This document shows, in pieces, positions 10,580 through 37,665 of a stretch of DNA of 64,000 nucleotides. Position numbers and translations under genes: made by a program. This DNA is from Flavobacteriales bacterium. Its GTDB lineage: Bacteria; Bacteroidota; Bacteroidia; UBA10329. The notes beneath the pieces were generated by a model. The model was not told the origin of the DNA. It was given only the letters and a program-made list of their open reading frames with translations, and searched no databases. The stretch lies in the NCBI GenBank assembly GCA_020635535.1, contig JACJZP010000011.1, positions 6,780 to 70,779 on the forward strand. The letters run 5' to 3'. Position 1 is the stretch's first letter. Every line of letters starts with the position of its first letter.

Positions 10580-10661
10580 TTGCCGCTTTTTCGGTAAAAA
10601 TAGGCATCGTTAAAATGTGTTAAGTGCATAATAGCACCCCTACACCACTCGTACCTTTGAC

Positions 10662-12392
10662 GTGTTGGGACAGAATACCATAAAAGCAACCGTTATCCTT
10701 ATGTCCGTGGCCTTGGTTGGGCTGATCGGTATACAGGTGTATTGGATCAATAACGCGGTTAAACTGCGACAACAGAAGTTCCAATCTACCGTAAATGAGG
10801 CTCTCGGAAATGTGGTCTATCAGTACGAAAAACTGAAAACGGCCGAAAGTCTTGCCCTGAAAATGGATCTGCGCGAAAAGCGGCAACGCCTCATCTGGCA
10901 AATGGATTCCATCAATAACGCCATCATGCGCACGCAGGATAGTTTGAACCTGTTGCAGCGTTCAAAGTACAATGGCAAAAACGGCATTGCTCCAGCAGAC
11001 AAGCGGGCAGGGCTCGGACAGAACGCGTATTTCTCTCCGAATGATGAGTTTTCGCAATTCTTTGCAAACGATCCCAACAGCCATTTTCAGATAAGTGTGT
11101 ACGAGGAGTTTCTGGTAGATTCTGCAGGAACCTTTGTAAAACGGACACGGCAAAAGCACTTTGAGTCGCCCAATTATGGACCAATAAGAAAGCCCGTACT
11201 ACCAGAGTCAGAAGATGAAGCGGCCTATTACTTGGATTCTTTGAAACAGGCCCAAACCATGAACCTGCACTGGTTAGAGAAACGGGCCGATATGGTGAAC
11301 GAGATCTTTGAGGAGATCGTGAGTGTTGACCTCTACGACCGTGCAGACCAGATAGACACCGTTGCGTTAGACTCACTGCTACAGCAACAGCTGAAAGACA
11401 AGGGCATTGGTGCAGATTACGTTTACGGCATCTTCGACCCATTCATGAACGCATATCATGTGGTAGGCTCACGCGAAGATTACAATGGCATTCTGGCCTC
11501 TCCACATAAGGTCAATCTCACTCCTGGAAACGTGTTCAGCCAACCTAAATTCCTGAGCATCTTCTTCCCAAACCAGAACAAGTACCTACTGCGTACCATG
11601 TGGCTGTTGCTTACCATATCGGCCATGTTCATTCTGGTCATCATCTTCTCATTCTCATTCACTGTTTCAACCATCATCAGGCAGAAGAAAGTGTCAGAGA
11701 TCAAGAACGATTTCATCAATAATATGACCCATGAGCTGAAAACACCGATCAGCACCATTTCATTGGCATGCCAGGCGCTCAGCGACCCAGACATAAAGAA
11801 CCGCGAGGGGATTGTGGACAACTACATTAACGTGATTGCCGATGAGAACAAACGCCTTGCAATGGTGGTGGAAAATGTGCTACGCACCGCAGTTATGGAC
11901 AAGGGCGAACTCAAACTGAAGATCGTTGACCTTGATATGAACGAAATGGTCAGTCAAGTACTTCAGAACATGAAGATCCAACTAGAGCAGAGAGGCGGTC
12001 AGTTCATAACCGATCTACAGGCAACGGAAACTATGGTTCAGGCCGACAGAATTCACCTTACAAATGTGATCTTCAATCTCGTTGACAATGCTTTGAAATA
12101 CACAGAAAAGATTCCGTTGATCAAGGTTGGAACACGAAACGAGAAGAATGGAATTGTGATCTACGTTGAGGACAACGGAATAGGAATTTCCAAAGAGAAC
12201 CAGAGCAAGGTGTTCGATAAGCTTTACCGCGTACCGACCGGAAACATCCACAACGTGAAGGGTTTTGGCCTTGGCCTGAGCTACGTGAAAGCCATTGTTG
12301 ACAAGCATAACGGTTGGATAAACCTCCGTAGCGAACTCAACAAGGGCAGCCGATTTGAAATATTCATCCCCCATAAATACAACCAATTATGA
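10662..12392 (+). CDS. sensor histidine kinase (HisKA + HATPase_c), membrane-anchored
   Basis: TM segments, H-box NMTHELKTPIST, and N/G boxes DNALKYT...GFGLGLSYVK. Confidence 0.8.
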   Translation: MLGQNTIKATVILMSVALVGLIGIQVYWINNAVKLRQQKFQSTVNEALGNVVYQYEKLKTAESLALKMDLREKRQRLIWQMDSINNAIMRTQDSLNLLQRSKYNGKNGIAPADKRAGLGQNAYFSPNDEFSQFFANDPNSHFQISVYEEFLVDSAGTFVKRTRQKHFESPNYGPIRKPVLPESEDEAAYYLDSLKQAQTMNLHWLEKRADMVNEIFEEIVSVDLYDRADQIDTVALDSLLQQQLKDKGIGADYVYGIFDPFMNAYHVVGSREDYNGILASPHKVNLTPGNVFSQPKFLSIFFPNQNKYLLRTMWLLLTISAMFILVIIFSFSFTVSTIIRQKKVSEIKNDFINNMTHELKTPISTISLACQALSDPDIKNREGIVDNYINVIADENKRLAMVVENVLRTAVMDKGELKLKIVDLDMNEMVSQVLQNMKIQLEQRGGQFITDLQATETMVQADRIHLTNVIFNLVDNALKYTEKIPLIKVGTRNEKNGIVIYVEDNGIGISKENQSKVFDKLYRVPTGNIHNVKGFGLGLSYVKAIVDKHNGWINLRSELNKGSRFEIFIPHKYNQL

Positions 12393-13090
12393 GCGCAGAG
12401 AAAATAAACGTACTGTTGGCAGAAGACGACCCGAATCTGGGCATGCTGCTTAGAGAATACCTGAATGCTAAAGGCTACGAAACAGCTTTGGCTGAAAACG
12501 GAAAGGTTGCTTATGAGATGTTCATGCAAGGTGGATTCGACCTCTGTATTTTGGATGTGATGATGCCGATAAAGGACGGTTTCACGCTTGCGGAAGACAT
12601 CCGCCAGACAGACAAGCATGTTCCGATCATTTTCCTGACGGCCAAGAGCATGAAGGATGATAAAATGAAAGGGTTCCAATCTGGTGCAGACGATTACATA
12701 ACCAAGCCATTCAGTATGGATGAACTGCTTATGCGTATGCAGGCCATTCTTCGAAGAACAATTCCTGAGGTTGGTAAGGCCAAGAAGAAGGATACCATAA
12801 AAGTGGGCAGCTTCGATTTTGATTTTGACAAGCAGCTTCTTATTCTGGACGGCAAAGAACAACGGCTTACCACTAAAGAAGCCAACCTGTTATTGATGTT
12901 CTGCGAAAACCGATATGATGTACTAGACAGAAACTATGCGCTGAACAAGGTTTGGGGTGATGACAATTACTACAACTCCCGCAGTATGGACGTTTACATT
13001 GCCAAGCTGAGAAAATACCTTTCCCTTGACCCGGATGTGGAGTTGGTGAACGTGCACGGAAAAGGATTCAAGCTTTTAGCTAAGGAATAG
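12389..13090 (+). CDS. response regulator, OmpR/PhoB family (REC + winged-helix)
   Basis: LLAEDD...ILDVMMP receiver domain and C-terminal trans_reg_C-like domain. ATGA-coupled to the kinase. Confidence 0.85.
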   Translation: MSAEKINVLLAEDDPNLGMLLREYLNAKGYETALAENGKVAYEMFMQGGFDLCILDVMMPIKDGFTLAEDIRQTDKHVPIIFLTAKSMKDDKMKGFQSGADDYITKPFSMDELLMRMQAILRRTIPEVGKAKKKDTIKVGSFDFDFDKQLLILDGKEQRLTTKEANLLLMFCENRYDVLDRNYALNKVWGDDNYYNSRSMDVYIAKLRKYLSLDPDVELVNVHGKGFKLLAKE

Positions 13091-13151
13091 GCTAACCTCT
13101 GTCAGCTTTGTGGCGTAGGAATTCTGTACATTCAGATATTCCATTGCGCTG

Positions 13152-13463
13152 ATGCATTATATCATGTTCTCAAGGGGGCTCAAACCTGACCAACCAAGTT
13201 CACTTCTTGAGATTTCGGCAATTCCTGAACTGAAACTGATACACTTTGGTGACTATGACAGGCTCACTCAGTTGTATGTATTGGAAGGTCCTTTCAGACC
13301 TGTTGTGAGCGAATTTGAACACATCAAGGATAGAGAGGGGCCCTCTTGCGTATATGTTGGCGAAGGAGATGTTCCGTTCGACCTGGAAGATGCTCACACT
13401 TGGGTTTGGAAAGAGTTCATCAAGCAAACAGGCATGACCTACATCCCAACTGTTTCACTATAA
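13152..13463 (+). CDS. hypothetical protein
   Basis: ORF only. No recognisable motif. Confidence 0.3.
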   Translation: MHYIMFSRGLKPDQPSSLLEISAIPELKLIHFGDYDRLTQLYVLEGPFRPVVSEFEHIKDREGPSCVYVGEGDVPFDLEDAHTWVWKEFIKQTGMTYIPTVSL

Positions 13464-14246
13464 GCAGCCCGTTCTTCCACCATCAACCGGAACATTGATG
13501 CCGTTAATGTAACCAGCCAATGGCGATGCAAGGAACGTGGCTGCGGCAGCCACTTCCCACGGTTGAGCAAATCGCGCAGCAGGAACTTGGGCACGCATGG
13601 CGTTGGCAACCTCCTCTTCTGATTTACCTGTTTTAGATGCCTTATTGCTGATAATACTTGTAAGCCGTTCTGTTTCTGTGGCTCCAGGTAGTACGTTATT
13701 CACGGTAATGCCGAATTGGCCCAACTCGTTTGCCAATGTTTTGCTCCAATTGGCCACGGCACCTCGAATGGTATTCGAAACTCCCAATCCAGTCAACGGA
13801 ATCTTTACTGAAGTGGAAATAATGTTTATGATACGTCCATAACCCTCTGCTTTCATTCCGCCAACCACTGCCTGCACCAATATGTGATTGCACATCAAGT
13901 GCGAACGGAACGCACGTTCGAACTCATCCAACTCCGCATCAATGGCCAACCCTCCCGGAGGGCCGCCTGTATTGTTCAGAAGAATATGATAAGGATTGGC
14001 TGATTTCATATGATTCTCCACCACGATCTTCAGCGCTTCGGGTTTACTGAAATCCGCTACAAGGTAATCGTGGGTCTGGCCCGCACTTGAATCCAACTGG
14101 CTACAGACCCCTTTCAACTTCTCTTCATTCCTGGCAAGCAGCGTTACGGTAGCTCCGGCTTCAGCCAATTGCATGGCTACGGCTTTGCCAATTCCAGCTG
14201 TACTTCCGCTTACCAGCGCGCGCTTTCCTGTTAGATCGATCTTCAT
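13458..14246 (-). CDS. SDR-family oxidoreductase
   Basis: TGxxxGIG motif (VSGSTAGIGKAV), NNTGG, and catalytic YxxxK region. Confidence 0.85.
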   Translation of the reverse strand: MKIDLTGKRALVSGSTAGIGKAVAMQLAEAGATVTLLARNEEKLKGVCSQLDSSAGQTHDYLVADFSKPEALKIVVENHMKSANPYHILLNNTGGPPGGLAIDAELDEFERAFRSHLMCNHILVQAVVGGMKAEGYGRIINIISTSVKIPLTGLGVSNTIRGAVANWSKTLANELGQFGITVNNVLPGATETERLTSIISNKASKTGKSEEEVANAMRAQVPAARFAQPWEVAAAATFLASPLAGYINGINVPVDGGRTGCL

Positions 14247-14269
14247 CTTCGGGCTTTGGTCAAAGCTAC

Positions 14270-14836
14270 TTGAATTTCCTTACTTTGACCGAAACGAAAC
14301 CTATCATGGCAATACGCAGACCTTTCAATCTTAAACAGTGGATAGACGACAACCGCGACCTACTGAAACCACCCGTTTCCAACAAAAATCTATATACAGA
14401 GGCAGGAGATTACATTGTAATGATAGTTGGCGGCCCGAATGCCCGAAAGGACTATCATTACAACGAAACGGAGGAACTTTTCTACCAACTGGAAGGCGAT
14501 ATCAATGTTCGGATACAGGAAGATGGAAAGGCGGTGGATGTTCCGATCAAGGAAGGTGAAATGTTCCTGCTTCCGGCCAAGGTTCCGCATTCTCCAGGCA
14601 GAAGCGAGGGTTCAGTTGGTTTGGTCATTGAACGAGTGCGCATCGGTACCGAAATGAAAGACGGTTTGATGTGGTTTTGCGATAAATGCAACAACAAATT
14701 GCACGAAACCTATTTCCCGCTTACCAATATTGAGAAGGATTTTCTGCCGCGTTTCCGCGAGTTCTATGGATCGGAAAAACTTCGAACCTGTTCTAACTGC
14801 GGACACGTAATGGAAACCGACCCTCGCTTCGTTTAG
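14270..14836 (+). CDS. nbaC: 3-hydroxyanthranilate 3,4-dioxygenase
   Basis: Cupin core with iron-ligand His/Glu positions (MIVGGPN...YHYNETEELFYQLEGD...PHSPGR). C-terminal rubredoxin-like CDKC...CSNC Zn site. Confidence 0.85.
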   Translation: MNFLTLTETKPIMAIRRPFNLKQWIDDNRDLLKPPVSNKNLYTEAGDYIVMIVGGPNARKDYHYNETEELFYQLEGDINVRIQEDGKAVDVPIKEGEMFLLPAKVPHSPGRSEGSVGLVIERVRIGTEMKDGLMWFCDKCNNKLHETYFPLTNIEKDFLPRFREFYGSEKLRTCSNCGHVMETDPRFV

Positions 14837-14854
14837 AAATGGTGATAAAAAAGA

Positions 14855-14880
14855 AAGGCTCCCAAATTGGGAGCCTTTTT
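14855..14880. terminator. bidirectional rho-independent terminator
   Basis: GGCTCCC-aaatt-GGGAGCC hairpin followed by TTTTT, between convergent genes. Confidence 0.6.
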
Positions 14881-14900
14881 CATTTCAATCGCATGATCAA

Positions 14901-16058
14901 TTATTTGATCACGCTCAATCTTGAAGTGTGCGCAACCTTCCCTGCTTCGTCTACCATTTGGAAAACGTAAAGTCCGGTTGAAAGTCCATTAAGGCTCACT
15001 GATTGACCGTCAATGGTCAACAACTCTGTAACGAGCAGTTTTCCGGTCATGTCATATACATTGAACTCATAGATGTCTCCTCCTGTTCTAACACGAATAA
15101 AATCGGTGGTAGGATTAGGATAGATGACATTCTGACCAGCAGCAACGATTTCTTCAACACCTGTACAACACTGGCTCTGACCAGATTTGTGGGTTGCCGA
15201 GATCGGAGTTCCATTGGCTTCTGTAGTAATATCGGCCACATAATAACCCAATTCCTTACTCACAAAACGTGTTCTGTAAACAGTTACATTGCTTGGAACC
15301 CCAATCAGACCTTCAACGAATGAAGGAGGTCTTTCCCATCCGTTGGAAGCGGTCCAGCCCCAAAGTGTATCTATGCTGGTTTCTACCACTTCCATTTTCA
15401 AAACATTATGCGTTCCACCAAGTGCATCGGTCAAGGTGCCATCGCCAACAATTTCAGCTTCGTAATAGACAATCCGCTTCACTTGAACTGAGTCTGGGTC
15501 CCAGAAACTCGCAAACTGAGCAGGAACCAGACCGTCAGAGAAGAATTTTCCTTCAAAATGTGCAGTATCCATTAGAACAGGAGAGTTAACTGATGCTGGA
15601 AATTCAAAAAGTGTCCAAGGGTCTTGCGCAACAAGTGCAACCTCTATTGGAATTGGACTTCCCAACTGACCAGCGAAATCGCCACCAAGGCCGATTACCT
15701 CCACAGAACCCGCGCCTACTGATGTGAAAGCATAGATTCCGCCAATTTGATCCACCGCTACGTCAGCTGTTGGGAATGAAGACCCCCCCTGAACTGTTGA
15801 TGGGTCGTAAAAACCGACATCAAAAAGATCGTCTGTTTCCAATGTAGAGCAGTCAAATGTCTGACCTGATCCTGTAGAGCCCATGTCAAATGTCAGCGTA
15901 TCATCTGAAATGTCTGCATCATCACCAAACGTGATCACATCTCCCACGCCTGCAAAGTCAGCCTGGTCGATAACAACCTGGGCATTGGCCGAGGCAATTG
16001 TTCCAAGAACAAAAAATGGTATTAGTTTTTTCATAGTTGTGTTATTGTTGAGCATCAA
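14901..16058 (-). CDS. secreted protein with T9SS (Por) type-A C-terminal sorting domain
   Basis: Signal peptide. C-terminus ...IYPNPTTDFIRV...GKLL...LSTGLYVFQMVD...RLSVIK is a typical T9SS CTD. Confidence 0.7.
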   Translation of the reverse strand: MMLNNNTTMKKLIPFFVLGTIASANAQVVIDQADFAGVGDVITFGDDADISDDTLTFDMGSTGSGQTFDCSTLETDDLFDVGFYDPSTVQGGSSFPTADVAVDQIGGIYAFTSVGAGSVEVIGLGGDFAGQLGSPIPIEVALVAQDPWTLFEFPASVNSPVLMDTAHFEGKFFSDGLVPAQFASFWDPDSVQVKRIVYYEAEIVGDGTLTDALGGTHNVLKMEVVETSIDTLWGWTASNGWERPPSFVEGLIGVPSNVTVYRTRFVSKELGYYVADITTEANGTPISATHKSGQSQCCTGVEEIVAAGQNVIYPNPTTDFIRVRTGGDIYEFNVYDMTGKLLVTELLTIDGQSVSLNGLSTGLYVFQMVDEAGKVAHTSRLSVIK

Positions 16059-19368: not shown

Positions 19369-19905
19369 ATGTCACGTCTTACAATACCTTTTCTCTTTTT
19401 CTCTTTTTTCCTCTTCACTTCAGCGCAAGCACAGCACACCGTCATTATGAAAGATGGCTCGCAGAAGAAGGGCGAAGTGAAGTCCATGCAGGGCCCAACC
19501 CTTACCATGATGCACAATGGAAGACCCGTTGAAATGCTGATCTCCGACATTCGAACGGTTCACTTTTATGATGAGGAAAAAGCCGCTTCGGCATCATCCA
19601 CCAACCTCCGCAAGAAGTTCAAAGAAGGCTTCAAGGAATACGAATACGAGATGGAAGGCCGCAAAATGATCAGCTTCCCGAAGATCGGCCTTGGCACCAA
19701 GGATGAGGGCGTGGTGGTGGTCGAAGTGACCATTGACAAATATGGAAACGTGCTTCGTGCCGAACCAGGAGCACCTGGCACCAAAACAACAGACGATAAG
19801 TACCTGTTCGCGAAAGCGAAATCTGCCTGTCAGCAGGCCAAATTCGATAGCGACCCGACCGCACCGCTTTCCACCACGGGCAAGATCTACGTTACGTTTC
19901 CGTAA
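19369..19905 (+). CDS. secreted protein with TonB C-terminal-like domain
   Basis: Signal peptide. C-terminal GVVVVEVTIDKYGNVLRAEPGAPGT...AKFDSDP...GKIYVTF resembles the energy-transducer TonB C-domain fold. Confidence 0.45.
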   Translation: MSRLTIPFLFFSFFLFTSAQAQHTVIMKDGSQKKGEVKSMQGPTLTMMHNGRPVEMLISDIRTVHFYDEEKAASASSTNLRKKFKEGFKEYEYEMEGRKMISFPKIGLGTKDEGVVVVEVTIDKYGNVLRAEPGAPGTKTTDDKYLFAKAKSACQQAKFDSDPTAPLSTTGKIYVTFP

Positions 19906-19991
19906 AGGCGTATGGCCATACGCCCTTACTCGTAAACATCCTTGCGATGTCCGAGTTCAATAACATCCACGAGTAGAATCTCATCTTCATT

Positions 19992-21484
19992 TTGCGGTTA
20001 GTCCCATTATGGATAATCCATAACTTATGCATCCTGAAGAAAAACCGAGCAAATGAGGTTATTTCCCCTCCTTTTATTGACCCTTTTTCCGCCTTTGCTT
20101 TGGCGCAGAACTATGATGAATGGTGGCAGAAAGAAGAAGAAGACCAATACACCGAAACGGCCGCGCCGAAATCTGCGCTCGAAGTGGTGCAGAAGATCCA
20201 CGACCGCGCTGTGGAAGAGGGTAACAGTCCGCAGTTGGTGAAAGCCGTGATCCACGAGATCAAGTTCCAGTCTGAGTTTGAGGAGGAAAGTCTGGTGGCG
20301 AGCATCATCCGACTGGAAGATGAGGCCAAAACCGCGCCCGAACCCACCAAGCAGATCCTGCATTCGCTGCTGGCCGAAATGCACTGGGGCTACTACCAGA
20401 ACAACAGTTGGCAGATACACAACCGCACCGCCACCGAAGCCGCAGGAGACAACATTCTGACATGGGATTTCAAGCGCATTGCCGAAGAGGCCGACAAGCA
20501 TTACAGACTTTCGTTAGAGAACCGGGAAGTGTTGAAATCCGCTGCGCTGAAGGATTATGAGGCGATTCTGACCGGTTCGGACAAGTACCGTGAACTGCGG
20601 CCATCGCTCTATCATTTGCTGCTATCGCGGGCATTGGACTTCTACAGCTCGGAAGAGCGCGAGCTCATCAACTTCGACCCATCGGGCATTTACAACGACC
20701 CGAAACTGTTGGGTTCTGTGGATGAGTTCCTAACATGGGAAGCCCCAAAGAAAACCGGACTGCAACCCGCGGCCTACAGCATTCATCTTTATCAGGGATT
20801 GCTTCGCGAAGCCAAGAAACTCGGAACAGAAGCCTTGGTCTCCGAAGACCTGAAACGCTTGAATTTCATCTACGGCCGTTCGCAGGCGCAGGCGGCCCAC
20901 AAGGACTACACACACAGACTCCAATCGTTGGTGCAGGAACATGCTGCGGATGCCGTCTCGGGCGAGGCTGCCTACTATCTGGCGCTGCTTTACCACGACC
21001 AAGGAAGTGCTGCCTCTGACCCTTCGCATCCCGCGCGTTGGAACTGGAAAACAGCCGATTCCATCTGTCAGGTTTACATTGAGAAATTCCCGAATTCGTT
21101 GGGTGCGAGGAATTGCCAATCGCTTTCCGAACGCATCCGCATGAAGGAATGGAGTGTGGCAGCCGAGCAGCACACGCTTGCCGAAAAGCCGTTCCGATTC
21201 CTGTTCCGCTACCGCAACATTGGCGAAGCTGATGCCGCCAATTGGAAGGTTTACACGCAAGTGGCCAAACTCGACCCCATCGAATACCGCGAGAATGCCC
21301 GCAGCAACTATGGCGAAAAGCTCATCAATTGGCTGAAATCGCATTCGCAGACCGTTTCGAAAAGACCTTCGAAGTTCCCAATCCAAAAGATTTCCGCGAG
21401 CACAGCATTGAACTTCCGTTGGAAGGATTGCCCATTGGCACCTACGTCATCTTCACACGGGTTCCGATGCCAAACTTTCCATGA
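19992..21484 (+). CDS. N-terminal alpha-helical segment, probably of the alpha-2-macroglobulin-family protein (frame-broken); otherwise a separate coupled hypothetical gene
   Basis: Coding-like frame of about 480 aa. A signal peptide MRLFPLLLLTLF(S)AFALAQ is recovered if the T5 run at 20084-88 is read as T6. There is a second -1 break near 21325. An ATGA junction at 21481 leads into the MG-domain ORF. Confidence 0.5.
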
Positions 21485-23688
21485 ACAAGGATGTGGTGTC
21501 GTATGCCATCGTCACGGTCACCGATCTGGCACTTATCACCCGTTCCATCAACGATGGCGAAACGGTGCTGAAGGTCGTTTCGCGCGATAGCGGAAAACCC
21601 ATCGCGCAAGCACGCATTGAACTGCTGAGTCTGGTGTACAACCGCAATTCGCGCAGCAACGATTACAAGCTGGAGCAAACGCTGACCACCGACCAGAACG
21701 GGGTGGCAGTTTGGAAAGGTCAGGCGCAGAATTACCGTGGTTACATGGTGGATGTGTACCATGGCGAGGATAAGCTGATCGGAGCCGATAATGTTTACGG
21801 CTACAGCAACCGCGAGGACATCCGCTGGAACGACCAGACGCATTTCTTCCTCGACCGTGCCATTTACCGCCCAGGGCAGACCATCCATTTCAAGGGCATC
21901 ATGCTTTCGAGCAATGGCAAGGAGGTGAAAACGCTGACCGAAAAGAACACGACCGTAAAACTCTTTGACGCCAACGGGCAGGAAGTGAGTTCACTTGATC
22001 TGAAATCGAATGGTTTCGGGACGTTTTCGGGAACGTTCATTGCGCCAACTGGCGGACTGAACGGCTACATCCGCATTGGCAATGAGAGCGGTTCGCATTC
22101 GTTCCGCATGGAAGAATACAAGCGGCCGAAGTTTGAGGTGAAGGTTGACCAGCCAAAGGAGCAATACCGCGTGAACGACACGGTATCGGTTTCGGGAACG
22201 GCCATTTCCTATTCAGGCGTTCCGTTGGATGGTGCGGAAGTGAAATACCGCGTCACGCGCACCGCCCGTTTCCCGTATCCGTGGTTGTGCTGGGGTTGGT
22301 TCCCGCAATCGCAGCCCAAGCAAGTGGCTTTCGGAACGGCAACGACTGATGCTTCAGGTGTGTTCCAAATGGAATTCGAAGCGCAGCCCGACCCGCTAAT
22401 CAAGGCCACGTACAAGCCTGTTTTCAACTACCAGATCGAAGTGGATGTGACCGACCAAAGTGGCGAAATGCAGACGGGGAACACGAGCGTTTCGGTGGGT
22501 TACCACGCGCTGAACATCGACATTGATATTCCTTCGGTCATCGAGCGGTATGACCTAGGCCGTTATAACGTTTCGGCCACCAATCCTTCTGGCGAGCCAC
22601 AAGCAGCAGAGGTTTCGGTAGATGTTTGGAAGCTCAAGCCGAATGACCGCATACTTCGCAAGCGCATCTGGCAAACGCCCGATCAGTTCTACCTATCGGA
22701 GGCCGACCACAAGCGCATGTTCCGCAACGAACCGTACAAGAATGAGGGCGATCATCAAACATGGGAGCGCGACCGGAATATGTTCCATGCCGTGCTGCAA
22801 ACCGCCACCGATAAGGATGTGAGTTTTGCTCCGCTCAACGGCCTCGGGCAGGGTTATTACATGGTGGAACTGACCGCCAAGGACGCGTTCGGCACCGAAG
22901 TGGTGCAAAAGGCGTATTACTGCCTGACAGAGAAGGACGCGAAACTGCCACCGTACTTCACCACGGCTTGGTTCCACTCCCTCCAAGACAAATATGAGCC
23001 AGGAGAAACACTCGAACTGCTGATCGGTTCGTCTTACGCTTTTGTGGATTTCAAGATTGAAATTGAGGTCAAGGACAAAGGATTCCAGACCAACAAGATC
23101 ATTTACACCAAGGAAATCTCCTGCACGGGAACGCAGCAAAAGCTGGAGATTCCAGTAACCGAAGAATGGCGTGGAAATGCGCAGATTCATATCACTGCTG
23201 TGCGGAACAACGAACTGCTGAGTTGGTCGAAAACCATTTCGGTACCGTACACCAACAAGCAGTTGGATGTGAAGCTCGAAACCTTCCGCAAGGAAATGGC
23301 ACCCGATGATGCCGAAGAATGGACGGTCAGCATCAAAGACAAGAACGGAAAAGCCGCCAAGGCCGAATTCCTGACCACGATGTATGATGCCTCATTGGAT
23401 GTGCTGGCCGCCAACAACTGGGGGCTTTCGCCTTACCATTTCCTGAACGCGCGCTACAACTGGAATTCCAATTCATTCGGCCAAGCCCAAACCCAGATAT
23501 GGAATCGTAATTGGATGAAATATCCGAGTTCGGCCATTGCGAGGGAATTTGAAAAAATCGATTGGTTCGGATACTATTTCGGTAGTGGGAATTTCTACGC
23601 GTTGGAGAGCGTTGCGATTCGCAGTGGTGGTGCAAGAGGAACAGCTGATGATGATATGATGGCGGTTGAAGAAAGTGAGATCAAATGA
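21481..23688 (+). CDS. alpha-2-macroglobulin family protein, MG-domain portion
   Basis: MG2-type motifs HFFLDRAIYRPGQTIHFKGIM and SFRMEEYKRPKFEV, plus repeated beta-sandwich modules. Confidence 0.8.
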   Translation: MNKDVVSYAIVTVTDLALITRSINDGETVLKVVSRDSGKPIAQARIELLSLVYNRNSRSNDYKLEQTLTTDQNGVAVWKGQAQNYRGYMVDVYHGEDKLIGADNVYGYSNREDIRWNDQTHFFLDRAIYRPGQTIHFKGIMLSSNGKEVKTLTEKNTTVKLFDANGQEVSSLDLKSNGFGTFSGTFIAPTGGLNGYIRIGNESGSHSFRMEEYKRPKFEVKVDQPKEQYRVNDTVSVSGTAISYSGVPLDGAEVKYRVTRTARFPYPWLCWGWFPQSQPKQVAFGTATTDASGVFQMEFEAQPDPLIKATYKPVFNYQIEVDVTDQSGEMQTGNTSVSVGYHALNIDIDIPSVIERYDLGRYNVSATNPSGEPQAAEVSVDVWKLKPNDRILRKRIWQTPDQFYLSEADHKRMFRNEPYKNEGDHQTWERDRNMFHAVLQTATDKDVSFAPLNGLGQGYYMVELTAKDAFGTEVVQKAYYCLTEKDAKLPPYFTTAWFHSLQDKYEPGETLELLIGSSYAFVDFKIEIEVKDKGFQTNKIIYTKEISCTGTQQKLEIPVTEEWRGNAQIHITAVRNNELLSWSKTISVPYTNKQLDVKLETFRKEMAPDDAEEWTVSIKDKNGKAAKAEFLTTMYDASLDVLAANNWGLSPYHFLNARYNWNSNSFGQAQTQIWNRNWMKYPSSAIAREFEKIDWFGYYFGSGNFYALESVAIRSGGARGTADDDMMAVEESEIK

Positions 23689-23749
23689 TGATGAAGTTCA
23701 GGTTCAAAAAGCGCCCCAGCAATTATGATGATGATGCATCAGCGGACTG

Positions 23750-26146
23750 ATGGCTAAGAATGCAGAAGATGACGATCAATCTGCTCCACCTAAAGACATC
23801 AAAATGCGTTCAGATTTCTCTGAAACGGTGTTCTTCCATCCGCATTTGGTGAGCGATGAAAAGGGAAATGTCAGCTTCAAATTCAATGCACCACAATCAC
23901 TCACGCGATGGAAGTTCATGGGTCTCGCTACCACCGAAGACCTGAAGATCGGAACCATCACGGAAGAGGTCGTTACCCGCAAACAGTTGATGATAACGCC
24001 CAACTATCCGCGTTTCGTGCGGGAAGGCGATAAACTCATTTTCCAAGTAAAAGTGAACGTGTTGGATAGCTTGGTCAAGAGCGCTTCTGCTTCATTGGAA
24101 TTGACAGACGGATTAACTGGTGAGGCCATTGAATCTCAAATCGTTAATCGTCAATTGTTATTCGCTAATAATCAAGCGGTAGCTTCTTGGGAAATCGATA
24201 TTCCCGAAGGAATTTCCGCCATCAAGTTCACTACCAAAGCATGGTCAGACAAGCATTCGGATGGAGAGGAAAAAACCATTCCTGTGCTTCCGAACCGCAT
24301 GTTGGTGACTGAAAGCATGCCGCTTCCAGTCAGAGGAAAAGGCACGCACACCTTCAGTTTCGATAAGCTGTTAGGGCTTGATGCATCAAGACACAGCCAA
24401 ACGCTGCGTACACAATCGTTAACGTTGGAATTCACACCCAATCCGATCTGGCTGGCCGTGCTTTCGCTGCCGTACATGATGGAATACCCGTACGAATGTT
24501 CTGAGCAGATTTTCAGTCGCTACTACGCCAATGCCATCGGTACCCATCTGGCCAATTCCGACCCGAAGATCAAAGCGGTTTTCGAGCAATGGAAGCACGA
24601 TGCGCAGAACGGAAACGGGGATGCATTCCAATCTGAATTGGACAAGAATCCAGAACTGAAACAGGCTTTGCTGACTGAAACACCGTGGGTTCGAGATGCG
24701 CAGAACGAAACAGAACAACGCAGACGGATTGGTGAACTGTTCGATACCGACCGCATGGAAACCGAACTGCAAACGGCTCTCAAAAAACTGAAGCAGAACC
24801 AACAGCCCGATGGCGGTTGGGGCTGGTTCAACGGGCTGCGCTCCGATATGTACATCACACGTTACATCGTTTCAGGATTTGGCAAAATGCGCAAGATGGG
24901 CGTTTGGCAAATGGATGATGAAACCGAATCCATGCTTCGCGAAGCAATCGTTTTCCTCGATGAGGAAATGGTGAAATTCTACGCCCGCAGAGACCTGAAA
25001 GACAAGGATTACGTACCGAGTTGGACGGATTTGCATATGACCTACGCGCGGTCGTTCTGGTTGGATGATTTTGCGCTGAACGGCAAGGCGAAAACCACTT
25101 ACAACCTCATTGTAAAGAACATCCGCGATAAGTGGACGAAATTGGATGCTTCACAGAAAGGATTGGCGGCCGTGGTTCTGAAGCGTTCTGGATTTGAGGA
25201 TGACGCGAAAAAGGTCATCGTCTCGCTGCGCGAAACGGCACTAACAAGCGAGGAATTCGGCACGTATTGGGCCATGGACAAGGGCTATTACTGGTATCAG
25301 GCACCAATTGAAAACCACGTGATGATCTTGGAGGCGTTTGATGAGGTGGCCAATGATGCGGAAATGGTCCGCGAGATGAACATCTGGTTGCTCAAACAGA
25401 AACAGACGCAAAGTTGGGAAACCACCAAGGCCACGGCCGAAGCGTGCTACGCGCTGATCTCAACTGGCAACACCGACTTTGAAACTGAAGCGAAAGTTTC
25501 CATCAAGTTGGGTAATGAAACCATTGACCCACGCAAAGACCCAGACCTTAAGACCGAAGCCGGAACGGGTTACTTCAAGACCAATTGGACGAAGAATTCC
25601 GTGTACTCCGATATGGGAAATGTCACCGTGACCAAAGACAACGATGGCGTAGCATGGGGCGCGGTTTACTGGCAGTATTTCGAGGACTTGGATAAGATCA
25701 CAGGCGCTACCGACAATCCGATAAAAATGCAGCGGGAAGTCATGCTGTTGGAAGACACGGAGAACGGCCCTGTGATGAAACCGTTGGGAGAGAACACCTC
25801 ACTTTCTGTTGGCGACAGAGTTCGCGTTCGCATCGTTCTGGAAACCGACCGCCACATGGAATATGTGCATCTGAAAGACATGCGCGCTGCCAGTTTCGAA
25901 CCACGCAAGCAACTTTCTGGGGTAGAATTCCAAGAAGGGTTGAGCTACTACCGTTCGACTACTGATGCGGCCATGAACTTCTTCTTCAGCTACCTGCCCA
26001 AAGGCACGTTCGTGTTTGAGTACGACCTGAACGTAACCCAATCAGGCACCTTCAGCAACGGTATTTCCCAACTGCAATGCATGTACGTGCCTGAGTTTAC
26101 AACGCACTCTGAGGGAGTGAGGTTGGAGGTCAGAAGGAAACAATGA
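23750..26146 (+). CDS. alpha-2-macroglobulin family protein, bait/thioester-like/receptor-binding portion
   Basis: RSDFSETVFFHP...LTRWKF motif (A2M bait-region boundary). YPYECSEQ, the thioester-motif position with Ser in place of Gly. C-terminal A2M_recep-like region. Separated from the previous ORF by a frame break inside a GATGAT-repeat stretch. Confidence 0.8.
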   Translation: MAKNAEDDDQSAPPKDIKMRSDFSETVFFHPHLVSDEKGNVSFKFNAPQSLTRWKFMGLATTEDLKIGTITEEVVTRKQLMITPNYPRFVREGDKLIFQVKVNVLDSLVKSASASLELTDGLTGEAIESQIVNRQLLFANNQAVASWEIDIPEGISAIKFTTKAWSDKHSDGEEKTIPVLPNRMLVTESMPLPVRGKGTHTFSFDKLLGLDASRHSQTLRTQSLTLEFTPNPIWLAVLSLPYMMEYPYECSEQIFSRYYANAIGTHLANSDPKIKAVFEQWKHDAQNGNGDAFQSELDKNPELKQALLTETPWVRDAQNETEQRRRIGELFDTDRMETELQTALKKLKQNQQPDGGWGWFNGLRSDMYITRYIVSGFGKMRKMGVWQMDDETESMLREAIVFLDEEMVKFYARRDLKDKDYVPSWTDLHMTYARSFWLDDFALNGKAKTTYNLIVKNIRDKWTKLDASQKGLAAVVLKRSGFEDDAKKVIVSLRETALTSEEFGTYWAMDKGYYWYQAPIENHVMILEAFDEVANDAEMVREMNIWLLKQKQTQSWETTKATAEACYALISTGNTDFETEAKVSIKLGNETIDPRKDPDLKTEAGTGYFKTNWTKNSVYSDMGNVTVTKDNDGVAWGAVYWQYFEDLDKITGATDNPIKMQREVMLLEDTENGPVMKPLGENTSLSVGDRVRVRIVLETDRHMEYVHLKDMRAASFEPRKQLSGVEFQEGLSYYRSTTDAAMNFFFSYLPKGTFVFEYDLNVTQSGTFSNGISQLQCMYVPEFTTHSEGVRLEVRRKQ

Positions 26147-26198
26147 AAATGACGGAGAATCGTAAATTGACAATCGACTTCCACATATCCCGACTCAT

Positions 26199-26206
26199 TA
26201 AATTTG
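26199..26206 (+). promoter_or_regulatory. candidate Bacteroidota -7 promoter element (TAnnTTTG) for the lytS-lytTR operon
   Basis: TAAATTTG lies 26 nt upstream of the ATG at 26232. Confidence 0.3.
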
Positions 26207-26231
26207 TTTGAATTAACAAGTCAATTCAAAA

Positions 26232-26948
26232 ATGGATTTTCAGAACGTTGACCATCTACAGATCCTTTTGGTATTAGCGTTTGCACTTGCTGTTTGGTCT
26301 TATTTCAGCATGAAGAAGGAGCGAAAAAAAAGCGCGCGTCTACATGACGAAAACGCGCAGCTTTTAGCTCAAAACGCTATTCTCGAAGCTGAGCAATTGA
26401 AATTCCAGCTGCAACCACACACCCTGAATAATATTCTTGCTAATCTGAAGGCTGTTGCTTCGAAACTACACAGAGGAATGGATGCTCTCTCAGAAACACT
26501 CGAATACATCATTTATAAAGGCAAGGGACATTTGGTAACTGTTGAGGACGAACTTGTTTTTATACAGAGATACCTCATTTTGAACGAGCTGTTCTTAACT
26601 CACATGGACTCCATCAAATTAGACGACACACGGGTGAATGCGAACAGCGAATTTTACCGAAAACCATGTCTGCCTCACCTTGTCACGGGCTATCTCCTTG
26701 AGAACGCATTCAAACATGGTGATACACGTGACCCAAATTTCTTGTCGATTAGTGTGTGTCTAAGCGACCGGGTTTTTGAGCTTCAGGTCTCGAATAAAGT
26801 ACGGTCGGGGCACAGTAATCGCAACGGTGGTATTGGACTACAGAACATGAGAAAGCGATTAGACCTACTTGCCTCTGGCAGCTACGAGCTAAATCACCAA
26901 CAGACCGATTCGGAATACATTTCGACCCTGACAGTGAAATTGAAATGA
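26232..26948 (+). CDS. LytS/YehU-type sensor histidine kinase (His_kinase PF06580-like + HATPase), single TM helix, no extracytoplasmic domain
   Basis: QLQPHTLNNILANL H-box typical of LytS-family kinases, N/G boxes LENAFKHG...NGGIGLQNMRKRLDL, and one N-terminal TM segment. Confidence 0.8.
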   Translation: MDFQNVDHLQILLVLAFALAVWSYFSMKKERKKSARLHDENAQLLAQNAILEAEQLKFQLQPHTLNNILANLKAVASKLHRGMDALSETLEYIIYKGKGHLVTVEDELVFIQRYLILNELFLTHMDSIKLDDTRVNANSEFYRKPCLPHLVTGYLLENAFKHGDTRDPNFLSISVCLSDRVFELQVSNKVRSGHSNRNGGIGLQNMRKRLDLLASGSYELNHQQTDSEYISTLTVKLK

Positions 26949-27703
26949 GCAAATTGAAAGTTGCCGTTCTGGAAGATAGCCCGCTTCTACTTGAAGAGTT
27001 GCGGTATATGCTACGTGATACAAACCTTGTTGATGTAGTAGTTTGTAGTCAGAGTTGCGAGGAATTCATTCAGAAGGTTAAACAGACCAAGGTTGACGCG
27101 CTGATATTGGACATAGACATTGCGGGCGACAACATGAGCGGAATGGATGTAGCCTATCACTTAAAGTTACCTGTACTTTTCGCAAGCGGTAAGACCAAGG
27201 ACAATCTGGAAGGTATTGAAGATTTGACCTTAGAGGAATGGAGCATTGTTGAACACCTTACCAAACCAATAAAGAAGGAAAAACTCGAACGAATGCTTCC
27301 ACAGTTCATTGAACAAGTGCAAGCCAAGGCTCGTAAAAGTGTTGTCAGTCTGAGTCTGAAAGATGGCCGAACATTCGTTGTTCCGATGAATAGTGTTGCA
27401 TACATCTGCTCTTGCACAGGAAGTGACGGTCGGTCCTTGAATAAAGAAATTCATTTTGTAGACAGAAAACCTGGAATATTGGTTGATGTTTCCTTTCCTA
27501 AACTGGAATCTATCGGCTTCACCAGCACCCAGTTTATACGTCCTCATCAATCATACCGCGTGAACGTAGACCACGTGATGGAATACAATCGCCTCTATCA
27601 TAAACTTATTGTCTCTTCATTAAGCTCAGAAGGAAAGACTGTGCAATCCGAAATAGATGTTTCAGAAAACTACCGCTCAGAAATTAAGCAGAAGTTCAGG
27701 TAG
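26945..27703 (+). CDS. LytTR-family response regulator (REC + LytTR DNA-binding domain)
   Basis: VAVLEDS...ILDIDI receiver domain. C-terminal FIRPHQSYRVNVDHV is the LytTR signature (cf. FIRIHRSYIVN). ATGA-coupled to the kinase. Confidence 0.85.
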   Translation: MSKLKVAVLEDSPLLLEELRYMLRDTNLVDVVVCSQSCEEFIQKVKQTKVDALILDIDIAGDNMSGMDVAYHLKLPVLFASGKTKDNLEGIEDLTLEEWSIVEHLTKPIKKEKLERMLPQFIEQVQAKARKSVVSLSLKDGRTFVVPMNSVAYICSCTGSDGRSLNKEIHFVDRKPGILVDVSFPKLESIGFTSTQFIRPHQSYRVNVDHVMEYNRLYHKLIVSSLSSEGKTVQSEIDVSENYRSEIKQKFR

Positions 27704-27757
27704 GCACTTGTCACTCAAAACAAGGCACTTGTCACTCTGATGGGGATGATGTCACCC
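27702..27757 (+). promoter_or_regulatory. three direct repeats (AGGCACTTGTCACTC x2 plus degenerate ATGTCACCC) at 21/20-bp phasing; candidate LytTR operator upstream of the viperin gene
   Basis: Perfect 15-nt repeat at 27702-16 and 27723-37, with a third half-site at 27749-57. The 21-bp periodicity matches LytTR/AgrA-type direct-repeat sites. Confidence 0.4.
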
Positions 27758-27813
27758 GCAATTAGGTAACCTTTACCGACACTGGGACATTCGTTGAAAC
27801 AAAACTCAACGAT

Positions 27814-29205
27814 ATGATTCCATCAGTCAATTTTCACCTCTGGCAGCCCTGCAACATGGCCTGCAAATTCTGCTTCGCTCGCTTTGAGGATGTAAAGCGT
27901 AAGTTCAACCTTCCGAAAGGTCACCTCCCTGAGGAGGACGCCTTGGCCGTGGTCGATGAGCTGGCCGACATCGGCTTCGAGAAAATCACGTTCGCAGGCG
28001 GTGAACCAACGCTCTGCCCGTGGTTGGACAAGCTGATCGTCCGTGCAAAGGAGCGTGGCATGACCACCATGATTGTAACGAACGGGAGCCGTTTGGACGA
28101 ATCTACGCTACTCCAGTTCAAACCCCATCTCGATTGGATAGCCCTCAGCATCGACAGTCTTGATGCAGAGACAAATGCCCAATCTGGCCGAGTACTGAAA
28201 AGTTCGGGCGGCTCTCCCGATTACTTCAAGCTTGTGGATGCTATCAAGGCACATGGCTTTGGGCTGAAGATCAACACGGTCGTCCATAGCCTCAACATGG
28301 ACGAGTCCATGCACGAATTCATTCGACATGCGCGGCCAAAGCGATGGAAGCTGTTCCAAGTGCTTCCCATCGATGGGCAGAACAATGGAGCTGTCGAGCC
28401 GCTGCTCATCTCGTCAGAGCAATTTCTGGGGTTTGTTGACCGCCATGCCGACCTCAACGGAGTGACGGAGGTGATTCCGGAGACCAATGATGACATGCGT
28501 GGTTCCTATGCGATGGTGGATCCCTCCGGACGATTCTATGATAATGTGGATGGCCACCACCACTACAGCCGCCCAATCCTTGAACTCGGGGCCAGACTTG
28601 CTATTCAACAGATGCGCTATGATTTCAAGAAGTTCCTTGGAAGAAAGGGGCAATATGACTGGGTCATTGACCGCAGGGTGCCGGCTCGCATCACTCTGTC
28701 GGGCGAGGTGGCCTCGGGCAAGAGCAGTGTCGGCAGAAAACTGGCAGAGCGGCTAAAGTATCAGTTCTTTTCCATCGGAGACAAAACGAGGGAGTTGGCC
28801 GCAAAGGAGGGAATGAACATCGTTGAGTTCCAGCGGAGATGCCAATTGGATCCCTCGATGGACAGACAGATCGATTCCAAATTTTCAGAGGACTGCAATA
28901 GTCGCAATGGCCTGGTAGTGGATTACCGTCTTGGATTCCGATTCGTCCGCAATGCCTTCCATGTGTTCCTAAAAGTCTCACAGGAAAAGGCCATTGAAAG
29001 GCTGAACGGGGCCAAACGTGCCGGTGAGACGAGTGCTACCGTGAAGGAACGTAACGACTCTTTCAAGTGTCAGTTCATCAATGCCTATGGCGTAGACTAC
29101 ACAGCAGAGAAACACTATAATCTTGTACTCGATGCGGATGACTCCACTGTGGATGAACTCGTGAATCGGATACTTGAACAATTTAACCCAATTCCTAATC
29201 AATAA
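27814..29205 (+). CDS. prokaryotic viperin (radical-SAM, ddhNTP synthase-like) fused to a C-terminal cytidylate-kinase-like P-loop NMP kinase domain
   Basis: N-terminal NFHLWQPCNMACKFCF (CxxxCxxC), GGEPTL, and viperin-specific blocks (LSIDSLDAETN, GLKINTVVHSLNMDESMHEFIRHARPKRWKLFQVLPIDGQN, IPETNDDMRGSYAMVD, FLGRKGQYDW) that track human viperin. The last ~175 aa, RITLSGEVASGKSSVGRKLAERLKYQFFSIGD..., resemble Cmk/cytidylate_kin2. Confidence 0.85.
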   Translation: MIPSVNFHLWQPCNMACKFCFARFEDVKRKFNLPKGHLPEEDALAVVDELADIGFEKITFAGGEPTLCPWLDKLIVRAKERGMTTMIVTNGSRLDESTLLQFKPHLDWIALSIDSLDAETNAQSGRVLKSSGGSPDYFKLVDAIKAHGFGLKINTVVHSLNMDESMHEFIRHARPKRWKLFQVLPIDGQNNGAVEPLLISSEQFLGFVDRHADLNGVTEVIPETNDDMRGSYAMVDPSGRFYDNVDGHHHYSRPILELGARLAIQQMRYDFKKFLGRKGQYDWVIDRRVPARITLSGEVASGKSSVGRKLAERLKYQFFSIGDKTRELAAKEGMNIVEFQRRCQLDPSMDRQIDSKFSEDCNSRNGLVVDYRLGFRFVRNAFHVFLKVSQEKAIERLNGAKRAGETSATVKERNDSFKCQFINAYGVDYTAEKHYNLVLDADDSTVDELVNRILEQFNPIPNQ

Positions 29206-29221
29206 CCGACAAACACTCATC

Positions 29222-29947
29222 ATGAAAACACGAACCTTCTCAAATCGAACCATGAAATACGGAAATCGCCCTACGATTACTCCAGACCCATTGCTTGTTA
29301 GTAAAGCACTTGCCGTTTCGAATCGGCCAACTGGAATTAACAACTTCGTTGTCATTGCACGCTACAAATGGTTGGTAGCAAATGGGGCGATCTACCCCAA
29401 GCGCATGGAAAAGCCCAACCTATTCATAACCATAAATGATGGTATGGTGGAAGATTGTAAGTTCAGCTGTGTGTTTGGAAGAACGCTCCAAAAGCAGAGC
29501 TTCCATATTGAGGTTCTCAATGGTCCGTCAGAGACAAGTAGCGCGACTAAAGAAAATCTTATCCTTAGTAGAGACCTAGGACTGGCCAACCTATGCAACA
29601 TGGCTCTTGATGAATTCCGTGAAAGGGACATCATCCAACCTGTGTTCCCTCTGGATTTCAACACTTACGCTGATGACAGCTGCAACCTAAGTCTGAAGAC
29701 CCGTCCTTCAGACAAGGCTGTTCTGGAAATTCTTCGAGAAGCAGATGTGAACCATTGGGACAAGAACCTCATCATCATCGCCAGACAACGCTGGTTGAAG
29801 GAACAAGGGATTAAGATTCCGACTCAAACTGGAAACCTGAATCTGTTGGTCAAGATTGTCAACGGCCATTTGACCAGCTGCTTCTACAGTCCTGATATGA
29901 TGAACATCATAAGAAAACAGAACTACTTCATTCAAATCCTGAATTGA
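29222..29947 (+). CDS. hypothetical protein with two tandem homologous ~110-aa repeats (unknown function)
   Basis: Starts 16 nt after the viperin-kinase stop. The internal duplication is visible by eye (NNFVVIARYKWLVANG...LFITINDGMVEDCKFS versus KNLIIIARQRWLKEQG...LLVKIVNGHLTSCFYS). Confidence 0.5.
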   Translation: MKTRTFSNRTMKYGNRPTITPDPLLVSKALAVSNRPTGINNFVVIARYKWLVANGAIYPKRMEKPNLFITINDGMVEDCKFSCVFGRTLQKQSFHIEVLNGPSETSSATKENLILSRDLGLANLCNMALDEFRERDIIQPVFPLDFNTYADDSCNLSLKTRPSDKAVLEILREADVNHWDKNLIIIARQRWLKEQGIKIPTQTGNLNLLVKIVNGHLTSCFYSPDMMNIIRKQNYFIQILN

Positions 29948-30027
29948 CTTATTGGGCGAGGAGACCCAAAAACGCGGTAGCCAAAAAGCGTGCAACGAGT
30001 AGGCATAAACCCCAAAATCTTACAGCG

Positions 30028-30159
30028 ATGTCAAAAGGCAAATCTGGAAGTAGCAAAGGATTCCCTGGATGGCCAAGTACAACCGGGAAGCCATCCGGGT
30101 CTGGTAGGGCAAATGGCACTCCGACACCGAAACCCGCTTCTTCTACATCGAAGAAGTGA
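30028..30159 (+). CDS. 43-aa Gly/Ser/Lys/Pro/Thr-rich small ORF (predicted disordered, basic)
   Basis: MSKGKSGSSKGFPGWPSTTGKPSGSGRANGTPTPKPASSTSKK, followed 10 nt later by a strong terminator hairpin. Confidence 0.3.
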   Translation: MSKGKSGSSKGFPGWPSTTGKPSGSGRANGTPTPKPASSTSKK

Positions 30160-30168
30160 TGTACTGTT

Positions 30169-30199
30169 GAGGGGAGGACATCATGTCACTCCCCTTTTT
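30169..30199. terminator. rho-independent terminator, bidirectional (small ORF / thiolase)
   Basis: GAGGGGAGGACAT-ca-ATGTCACTCCCC hairpin followed by TTTTT. Confidence 0.6.
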
Positions 30200-30241
30200 G
30201 CTGTCCATGAACCCGGAAGGCGAGAAGTTGGAAATCGGTCG

Positions 30242-31444
30242 TTAAACCCGCTCAATAATGGTGGCAATACCCATTCCGCCACCAACGCAAAGGGTTACAA
30301 GACCTGTTTGCTTGTCCTGACGTTCTAGTTCATCGATGAGTGTTCCTATAAGCATGGCGCCTGTGGCTCCAAGCGGGTGACCCATTGCAATGGCGCCACC
30401 ATTCACGTTGACCTTGCTTTCGTCAATGTTCAGGTCTTCGAGAAAGCGAAGAACAACCGATGCAAATGCCTCGTTTACCTCAATCAGGTCGATGTCACCT
30501 ATTTCCATTCCTGCCTTTTTCAACGCTTTGCGTGTAACAGGCGCTGGTCCGAGCAGCATGATGGTAGGTTCGGTTCCTGTCAACGCCATGGAACGGATGC
30601 GAGCACGTGGTTTCAATCCTTGAGCTTCGCCAGCTTCTTTTGTTCCGATGAGGGTGAGCGCAGCGCCATCTACAATGGCACTTGAGTTACCTGCATGATG
30701 TACGTGATTGATGGTTCCAACCTCTGGGTATTTCTGTAGCGCGAGTTGGTCAAATCCCATATCGCCCAGTTTCTGGAAGGCTGGGTTCAACTTCAACAAT
30801 CCTTCTGCGGTTGTTCCAGGACGGATCATCTGGTCTCTATCAAGCAGCGAATTTCCATCAGCATCTTTCACAGGAATAATTGACTTGGCAAATCGATTCG
30901 CATTCCATGCAGCATCAGCTTTGGCGTGTGATCGCGAAGCAAATTCATCCAACTGCGTGCGGTTGTAACCGAATTTAGAAGCAATGAGATCTGCAGAAAT
31001 TCCCTGTGGAACAAGCGCATGTTTGGTAATGAAATCACGGTCGTCATACATTGGGCCGCCATCGGATGCGATCGGCACACGACTCATGCTTTCCAAACCG
31101 CCAGCTACAAGCAAGTCAGCATTTCCGCTTCCCACATAAGCAGCTGCCATGTTGATGGCTTCCAAACCTGAAGCGCAGAAACGATTCACCTGCACACCGG
31201 CCGTGGTTTCGGCATAACCCGCCTCAATGGCCGCGGCCTTGGCAATGTTCGCGCCTTGCTCCTTCACGGGGCTCACACAACCGATAATGGCATCTTCCAC
31301 CAGATCGGTGTTGAGGTTATTCCGTTCTCGGATGGCCTTGAAGGTCAAAGCCAAAAGATCAACGGGTTTTACCGAAGCCAAAGCCCCGTCTAGTTTTCCC
31401 TTTCCGCGCGGTGTGCGCACCGCATCATATATATAAGCGCTCAT
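30242..31444 (-). CDS. acetyl-CoA C-acyltransferase (thiolase)
   Basis: N-terminal DAVRTPRGK, active-site Cys region VNRFCASGLEA, and C-terminal NVNGGAIAMGHPLGATG...CVGGGMG. Confidence 0.9.
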   Translation of the reverse strand: MSAYIYDAVRTPRGKGKLDGALASVKPVDLLALTFKAIRERNNLNTDLVEDAIIGCVSPVKEQGANIAKAAAIEAGYAETTAGVQVNRFCASGLEAINMAAAYVGSGNADLLVAGGLESMSRVPIASDGGPMYDDRDFITKHALVPQGISADLIASKFGYNRTQLDEFASRSHAKADAAWNANRFAKSIIPVKDADGNSLLDRDQMIRPGTTAEGLLKLNPAFQKLGDMGFDQLALQKYPEVGTINHVHHAGNSSAIVDGAALTLIGTKEAGEAQGLKPRARIRSMALTGTEPTIMLLGPAPVTRKALKKAGMEIGDIDLIEVNEAFASVVLRFLEDLNIDESKVNVNGGAIAMGHPLGATGAMLIGTLIDELERQDKQTGLVTLCVGGGMGIATIIERV

Positions 31445-37661: not shown

Positions 37662-37665
37662 TGCC

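Follow-up and report, generated by a model that had tools for sequence, protein, structure and literature searches.

A frame-broken alpha-2-macroglobulin gene in a Flavobacteriales metagenome-assembled genome that is probably intact in the organism

The thioester motif CXEQ is a hallmark of the bacterial alpha-2-macroglobulin (A2M) family, whose type I genes in Proteobacteria frequently adjoin pbpC (PBP1c) and whose type II members, MagD of Pseudomonas aeruginosa and YfaS of Escherichia coli among them, lack the motif and are encoded in a mag operon of six genes (PMC5764988). Here, we have analysed a stretch of 64,000 nucleotides (nt) of a Flavobacteriales bacterium (GenBank assembly GCA_020635535.1, contig JACJZP010000011.1, positions 6,780 to 70,779), hereafter the window, which comes from a metagenome-assembled genome (MAG) at NCBI and whose proteins are the entries MCB9186736-788 with locus tags H6601_08xxx. 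Judged by its sequence, the segment 20053-26146 on the plus strand is a single orthologue of the A2M of about 2013-2043 residues found in Flavobacteriales, and it is interrupted by at least seven frame-disrupting indels. We would put at about 80% the probability that these indels are residual 1-2-nt consensus errors of the MAG assembly and that the gene is intact in the organism.

In the six-frame translation of 19900-26300, the coding signal switches frame repeatedly. The path starts at ATG 20053 (MRLFPLLLLTLF), continues through 20091-21356 and 21358-21457 into the open reading frame (ORF) 21481-23688, crosses the stop-filled segment 23686-23746 and ends with the ORF 23750-26146. Used as a query against a large protein collection, the conceptual product of 2032 residues matched single-ORF proteins of 2013-2043 residues that stem from metagenomes of Flavobacteriales, with identities of 85-91% over 99-100% of its length. 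These orthologues carry the Joint Genome Institute (JGI) label 'uncharacterized protein YfaS (alpha-2-macroglobulin family)'. At 37-40% identity and 98-100% coverage, it also matched over 100 other Bacteroidota proteins, of about 2000-2130 residues. Since intact single-ORF orthologues span 99-100% of the reconstruction, the pieces are one gene. The first-pass annotation of this DNA, which had taken the ORFs 21481-23688 and 23750-26146 for halves of one A2M and the locus for one secreted protein of about 2030 residues, is borne out by orthologues that span both halves. It had also proposed an alignment that would decide if the N-terminal region is part of the family; because the >100 longer homologues cover 98-100% of the reconstruction, the N-terminal ~430-470 residues do belong to the family architecture. 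The gene is an unremarkable representative of an A2M clade that is widespread in Bacteroidota. In the public record, its pieces are listed as separate hypothetical proteins, MCB9186750 and MCB9186751 (496 and 735 residues) and, for the third piece, presumably the accession that follows.

To place the breaks, we used orthologue proteins and DNA alignments with four related loci in which the gene is intact (L001, L002, L085 and L086). At 20053-20088 lie the start codon and the 12 initial codons of the signal peptide (MRLFPLLLLTLF); one T is lacking there in the T5 run at 20084-88, orthologues having T6 (TTTTTT in L002, CCCTTTTTTCC). The repair of T5 to T6 suggested by the first-pass annotation is exact: besides L002, four orthologues (P0002, P0004, P0006 and P0008) share the identical start MRLFPLLLLTLFSA. 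The second break is a deletion of one base at 21356/57, between GTT TC and GAA AAG (..ACC GTT TC- GAA AAG..), where orthologue proteins read SHSQTVSEKTFEVPNP. It is followed by a segment of 33 codons in a third frame at 21358-21457 (EKTFEVPNPKDFREHSIELPLEGLPIGTYVIFT); in tblastn searches, the orthologues match 21359-21457 at 97-100% identity. The third break is an insertion of CG at 21458-59 (ACA[CG]GGT, where orthologues read VIFTGSD), two bases that are missing from L001, L002 and L083. Both breaks had been predicted and both exist, but at other places than proposed: the second lies 30 nt downstream of the suggested site near 21325, and the third is the CG insertion rather than a T lost from the TTT run (21476-78), the ATGA overlap at 21481 being incidental.

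The fourth interruption, in the bait segment at 23686-23746, has stops in all three frames. The split that had been noted at 23686-23750 is real but is not a single event. Compared with three intact orthologues, it consists of at least three small indels, of about +1, -1, +2 and -1, one of which falls in an orthologous G5 run; the spacing between the EIK and LMA anchors is 61 nt in the window and 60 nt in the orthologues. As a result, the count of four frame breaks is too low, the alignments giving at least seven small indels. In the DNA alignments, every break is a 1-2-nt indel unique to the window copy, and no in-frame nonsense codon is found in the window A2M. An in-frame stop that appeared at reference-projected codon 1437 in the window, and one in the intact L001, are artefacts of projecting in-frame indels onto the reference.

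That the indels are of technical origin is what we infer from their size, clustering and company. Small-indel errors that escape correction occur in draft metagenome assemblies, for example in long-read consensus sequences or hybrid gap fills. The breaks of the window resemble them in coming as clusters of 1-2-nt changes, mostly deletions and often at homopolymers, with no nonsense codons and with a second MAG similarly affected. Errors of this kind would be concentrated in short low-quality patches, and such patches are found in other genes of the window when these are compared with intact orthologues from short-read assemblies. An amidohydrolase gene at 34029-37047 (1006-1011 residues in relatives) has 10 small indels within the 294 nt of 35549-35842 and is split into two ORFs. 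A second amidohydrolase gene at 37618-38989 (431 residues in relatives) has seven small indels within 38210-38572 and is likewise split into two ORFs. In a CarboxypepD_reg/TonB-type receptor of 787 residues, the N-terminus (39922-40082) is shifted by -1 at 40037 and by -1 at 40078, and the listed receptor ORF 40010-42283, with a TTG start, is an artefactual truncation. Deletions make up about 85% of all these indels, and many lie inside short runs of A, T, C or G; the clustering is strong (approximate P of 8e-9, 3e-3 and 3e-6). All other genes compared are intact, including those for UvrC, thiolase, HflX, aldehyde dehydrogenase, PAS kinase, PhoX, PhoD, TonB receptors and an ABC ATPase.

The amidohydrolase patches look like assembly errors also in their substitutions. 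Identity to the closest intact orthologue does not drop in them, being 0.91-0.92 inside the patches and 0.85-0.90 outside, as expected of draft-assembly errors; the corresponding values for the A2M gene are 0.85 and 0.89, its patches including the hypervariable bait. The second MAG, GCA_020635495.1 (JACJZQ010000001.1, locus L083, tags H6602), probably comes from the same submission as the window, judging from the adjacent locus tags and accession range. Its A2M gene is called as at least nine ORFs with roughly 20 single-nt indels, mostly at other sites than in the window, and together with the gene of 178 codons immediately upstream, which is split too, it makes up at least 11 small ORFs at 7960-14976, while the other flanking genes are intact. 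The orthologous G5 run in the bait is miscalled in both MAGs.

The best-surviving alternative, which we consider unlikely, is that the gene is a true pseudogene, recently inactivated by several real small indels, and independently so in the H6602 population, because the trap is dispensable in the habitat. It would account for at least seven frame-disrupting indels in one gene of 6.1 kb with most neighbours intact, for the broken gene in the second MAG and for the separate hypothetical proteins of the NCBI annotation; a deletion bias, too, is general knowledge for bacterial pseudogenes. The substitutions speak for an intact gene. With seven real neutral indels one would, by our estimate, also expect tens of neutral substitutions, of which about three quarters would be nonsynonymous, and a few stops; this excess of mostly nonsynonymous changes is not seen. 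The pairwise ratio of nonsynonymous to synonymous substitution rates (dN/dS) between the window A2M and intact copies is 0.07-0.09, the same as between intact copies. Lineage-specific nonsynonymous and synonymous codon changes number 24 and 98 in the window, 21 and 61 in the second MAG, and 46 and 142 or 48 and 183 in intact copies, so that the ratio in the window is as low as in intact orthologues. No nonsense change is found on any lineage compared, the second MAG with its roughly 20 indels being compared over its alignable part. The marks of relaxed selection in a genuine pseudogene, namely nonsense codons, a raised dN/dS and mutations spread along the gene, are absent from the window A2M. 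Moreover, dense patches of indels alone are also present in three unrelated genes, with unreduced identity inside those of the amidohydrolases, and 10 indels in 294 nt are not the pattern of independent neutral mutations.

Several points weigh against assembly errors as the origin of the breaks. The CG insertion at 21458-59 is no classic homopolymer error, and an insertion of 2 nt is atypical of draft-assembly errors. Natural pseudogenes of bacteria are likewise biased towards deletions. That the indels are restricted to some genes, and that A2M is affected in both MAGs, could be read as the independent loss of a dispensable gene; and a common study of origin for the two MAGs we infer solely from adjacent locus tags and accession numbers. 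Same-strain sequence over the break points was not found by exact look-ups of the ORFs of 798 and 735 residues in a contig index. A scan of JGI metagenome contigs with a pattern that covers the second and third breaks and allows either state gave 0 matches, and short protein queries over the bait region and these two breaks retrieved no same-strain fragment. Literature searches with the assembly and whole-genome shotgun (WGS) accessions returned neither the sequencing platform nor the study of origin. A Logan contig of run SRR15882951 is identical to 25969-30301 of the window (100%, no gaps), showing that the same strain is present in an independent run; it ends short of the break points.

We regard it as rather improbable, and somewhat more so than pseudogenization as such, that the breaks are real in the sense that the H6601 and H6602 populations have each independently accumulated many small indels in the same A2M gene, some of them at one shared G run of the bait. 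If they were, the locus would record either a very recent convergent loss or an indel-prone, hypermutable bait region in an otherwise strongly conserved trap gene.

A functional split of the gene, either into separate chains (an N-terminal half up to 23688 and a C-terminal one from ATG 23750, comparable with the two chains of C3) or with the T run and the GAT/ATG repeats as sites of programmed frameshifting or phase variation, would suit the bait region as the natural cleavage point of A2M, the ATG at 23750 after the stops, the ATGA overlap at 21481 and the short repeats, (ATG)4 and T5, but it is largely refuted and hardly credible because no break is conserved: all close orthologues from other assemblies are one continuous ORF and the second MAG is broken mostly elsewhere. 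Further, the N-terminal piece has no signal peptide unless the T run is repaired, and the stretch 21358-21457, in its separate frame, amounts to just 33 codons. Contingency loci typically have longer repeats than T5 and (ATG)4, and slippage by a trinucleotide would keep the frame. Programmed frameshifting and phase variation were rejected for the same want of conservation. Recoding of TGA, considered as an explanation of the TGA TGA TGA runs, was rejected because TGA is an ordinary stop here, ending 5 of the 11 ORFs checked, which excludes read-through.

The frame breaks should be treated as unverified when this MAG is mined for gene content, pseudogene load or the context of defence islands. 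The public record is affected beyond A2M, as it also splits the two amidohydrolases and truncates the N-terminus of the CarboxypepD_reg receptor.

In the reconstructed protein, the repaired N-terminus reads MRLFPLLLLTLFSAFALAQ|NY (ending in FSAFALAQ|NY) and has no lipobox cysteine. Judged by eye, it is a plausible signal of the signal-peptidase-I type, with cleavage at ALA|QN, and the protein would be exported by this cleavable signal peptide; some orthologues carry TGC|QAQ at the corresponding site. The stretch 20091-21356 encodes the rest of the signal peptide (AFALAQ|NYDEWW) and an N-terminal domain of helical repeats, the latter at 20091-21150, followed by the first beta strands. The domain is covered by all full-length homologues, and no Pfam match is found in the first ~420 residues. 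In the AlphaFold model of the N-terminal 422 residues (predicted local distance difference test score, pLDDT, of 87.4), a helical-repeat solenoid of about 350 residues is followed by the first beta strands. Compared with the PDB, this model gave generic matches to TPR and designed repeats only (E >= 0.008, template-modelling score TM <= 0.34), and the domain has neither a Pfam family nor a specific relative among the solved structures. It is mildly interesting that a whole clade of A2Ms has this uncharacterised domain of ~350 residues before its macroglobulin (MG) domains and is without the pbpC partner seen in Proteobacteria.

The MG domains and the bait-region domain follow at 21460-23685. 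In the middle ORF, Pfam recognises MG2 at ~21838-22083 (2.2e-19, above cutoff) and A2M_BRD at ~22984-23331 (4e-13), and bMG3 weakly (3.2e-07, 30.7 bits, below the cutoff of 34.9). The segment 23600-23750, the putative bait, is acidic, and orthologues differ greatly in its length and sequence, such hypervariability among close orthologues being expected for a protease bait. Among close orthologues, it has in-frame indels of up to 42 nt, and the sequence of L002 is unrelated. The C-terminal half (23744-26146, stop TGA) contains the A2M domain at ~23825-24076 (2.7e-19), the region of the CUB and thioester domains, and bMG10 at ~25727-26095 (4.5e-30), as seen by Pfam in the last ORF and by AlphaFold. 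Just 5' of the thioester domain, at 24370-24400, the window has an in-frame insertion of 12 nt of its own, in a locally divergent sequence (KLLGLDASRHSQTLRTQS, compared with KLKNNDSKTLRNHS in all relatives), which may be genuine variation or one more error patch, here a compensated one.

In relatives, the gene order is UvrC, the gene for a protein of 178 residues, A2M, and then thiolase, Rrf2 and HflX. The 178-residue hypothetical protein, encoded at 19369-19905, directly precedes A2M in the window as it does in L001, L002, L083 and L085. It has no Pfam match and only a sub-threshold NCBIfam match, and it is a possible functional partner of A2M. A2M and thiolase are adjacent, or split only by other small cargo, in L001, L083, L085 and L086, and in L003 and L007, too, the flank includes thiolase. 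In the window, the two are separated by a 4-kb block (26232-30241) with genes for a LytS-type histidine kinase of 238 residues, a LytTR response regulator and a fusion of prokaryotic viperin (pVip) with a kinase (PADLOC pVip-kinase, 6.8e-169; NCBIfam viperin_w_prok above cutoff), together with an ORF of 257 residues for which no family match was found. The block is identical in the SRR15882951 contig. Among 86 related loci it is found in one only, L084, a contig of the same strain, and at its place relatives have a ParE toxin-antitoxin pair, a Por_Secre_tail gene or nothing. As relatives hold different cargo or none, the site is a cargo hotspot, and on this comparison of loci the viperin block is a strain-specific insertion at a variable spot. 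The position of A2M upstream of the viperin cluster had been pointed out as notable; the adjacency is not conserved and is coincidental. Since the block is a strain-specific insertion at a variable site, nothing in these loci argues for a functional link between A2M and viperin.

How does the A2M of the window compare with known A2Ms? The chain of MG domains, the bait-region domain, the A2M domain and the C-terminal MG7-CUB-TED-MG8/MG10 fold, all features of the superfamily, are present according to Pfam, AlphaFold and a PDB profile search. The putative thioester motif CSEQ, within YPYECSEQ, is encoded at 24497-24508, and its C, E and Q are at least 90% conserved in the alignment. Its serine, in place of glycine, had been remarked on but is no peculiarity. 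Among 114 full-length homologues, CSEQ is the commonest form (54), followed by CAEQ (44), CTEQ (8), CVEQ (6), CMEQ (1) and CIEQ (1), and serine is therefore the norm of the clade; CxEQ is found in 111 of the 114 and absent from three.

We modelled the C-terminal ORF with AlphaFold from an alignment of 50 sequences (pLDDT 78.9). In the model, CSEQ sits at the start of a predicted helical toroid region. The best structural match is native E. coli A2M from MG7 to the C-terminus (4ziu, E 1.3e-27), followed by full-length ECAM (5a42), Sa-A2M (4u48) and native complement C3 (E 1e-25 to 1e-27), and the fit is better to native than to activated conformers. When 31 homologues were made into a profile, it matched human A2M in the PDB (1.5e-13), A2ML1, E. 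coli YfhM (7e-9), CD109 and Sa-A2M (2e-4). The similarity is remote, as phmmer gave no match of the C-terminal ORF to PDB sequences.

Type II proteins such as MagD and YfaS share the superfamily and a bait region with the A2M of the window, which differs from them in having CSEQ and in having no mag/yfa operon around it. Instead of six-gene operon partners, its neighbours are the 178-residue hypothetical protein upstream and thiolase or mobile cargo downstream. The eukaryotic relatives A2M, C3, TEP and CD109 share the fold and domain order of the C-terminal half (E 1e-21 to 1e-26 for native C3, C5, A2ML1, CD109 and TEP1), and the profile match to human A2M lies over the MG2 region. The eukaryotic motif is CGEQ rather than CSEQ, no anaphylatoxin or C345C domain was detected in the window A2M, and the latter has the bacterial bMG10 C-terminus and the additional N-terminal helical domain.

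The closest comparison is with the type I proteins YfhM (ECAM) of E. coli and Sa-A2M of Salmonella enterica (4ziu, 5a42, 4ziq and 4u48). An MG chain, bait-region domain, A2M domain, thioester domain with CXEQ and bMG10 are shared, the motif being CSEQ here and CLEQ in E. coli. The window A2M has a putative N-terminal export signal as well; YfhM and Sa-A2M are lipoproteins, and the window strain has no lipobox cysteine. The A2M of the window has about 2030 residues compared with about 1650 in theirs, the extra ~350-430 residues being the N-terminal helical-repeat domain. No gene for pbpC, a transglycosylase or a transpeptidase was found among the immediate neighbours examined in the window or within 10 kb in the called genes of L001, L002 and L085, the pairing with pbpC being a frequent association and not a strict requirement. 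From its motif, the A2M of the window is a putative thioester-bearing protein and in this resembles bacterial A2Ms of type I. Going by the analogy of ECAM and Sa-A2M, the protein may act as a periplasmic protease trap, in which cleavage of the exposed bait would lead to a conformational change and to covalent capture of the protease by the Cys-Gln thioester of CSEQ.

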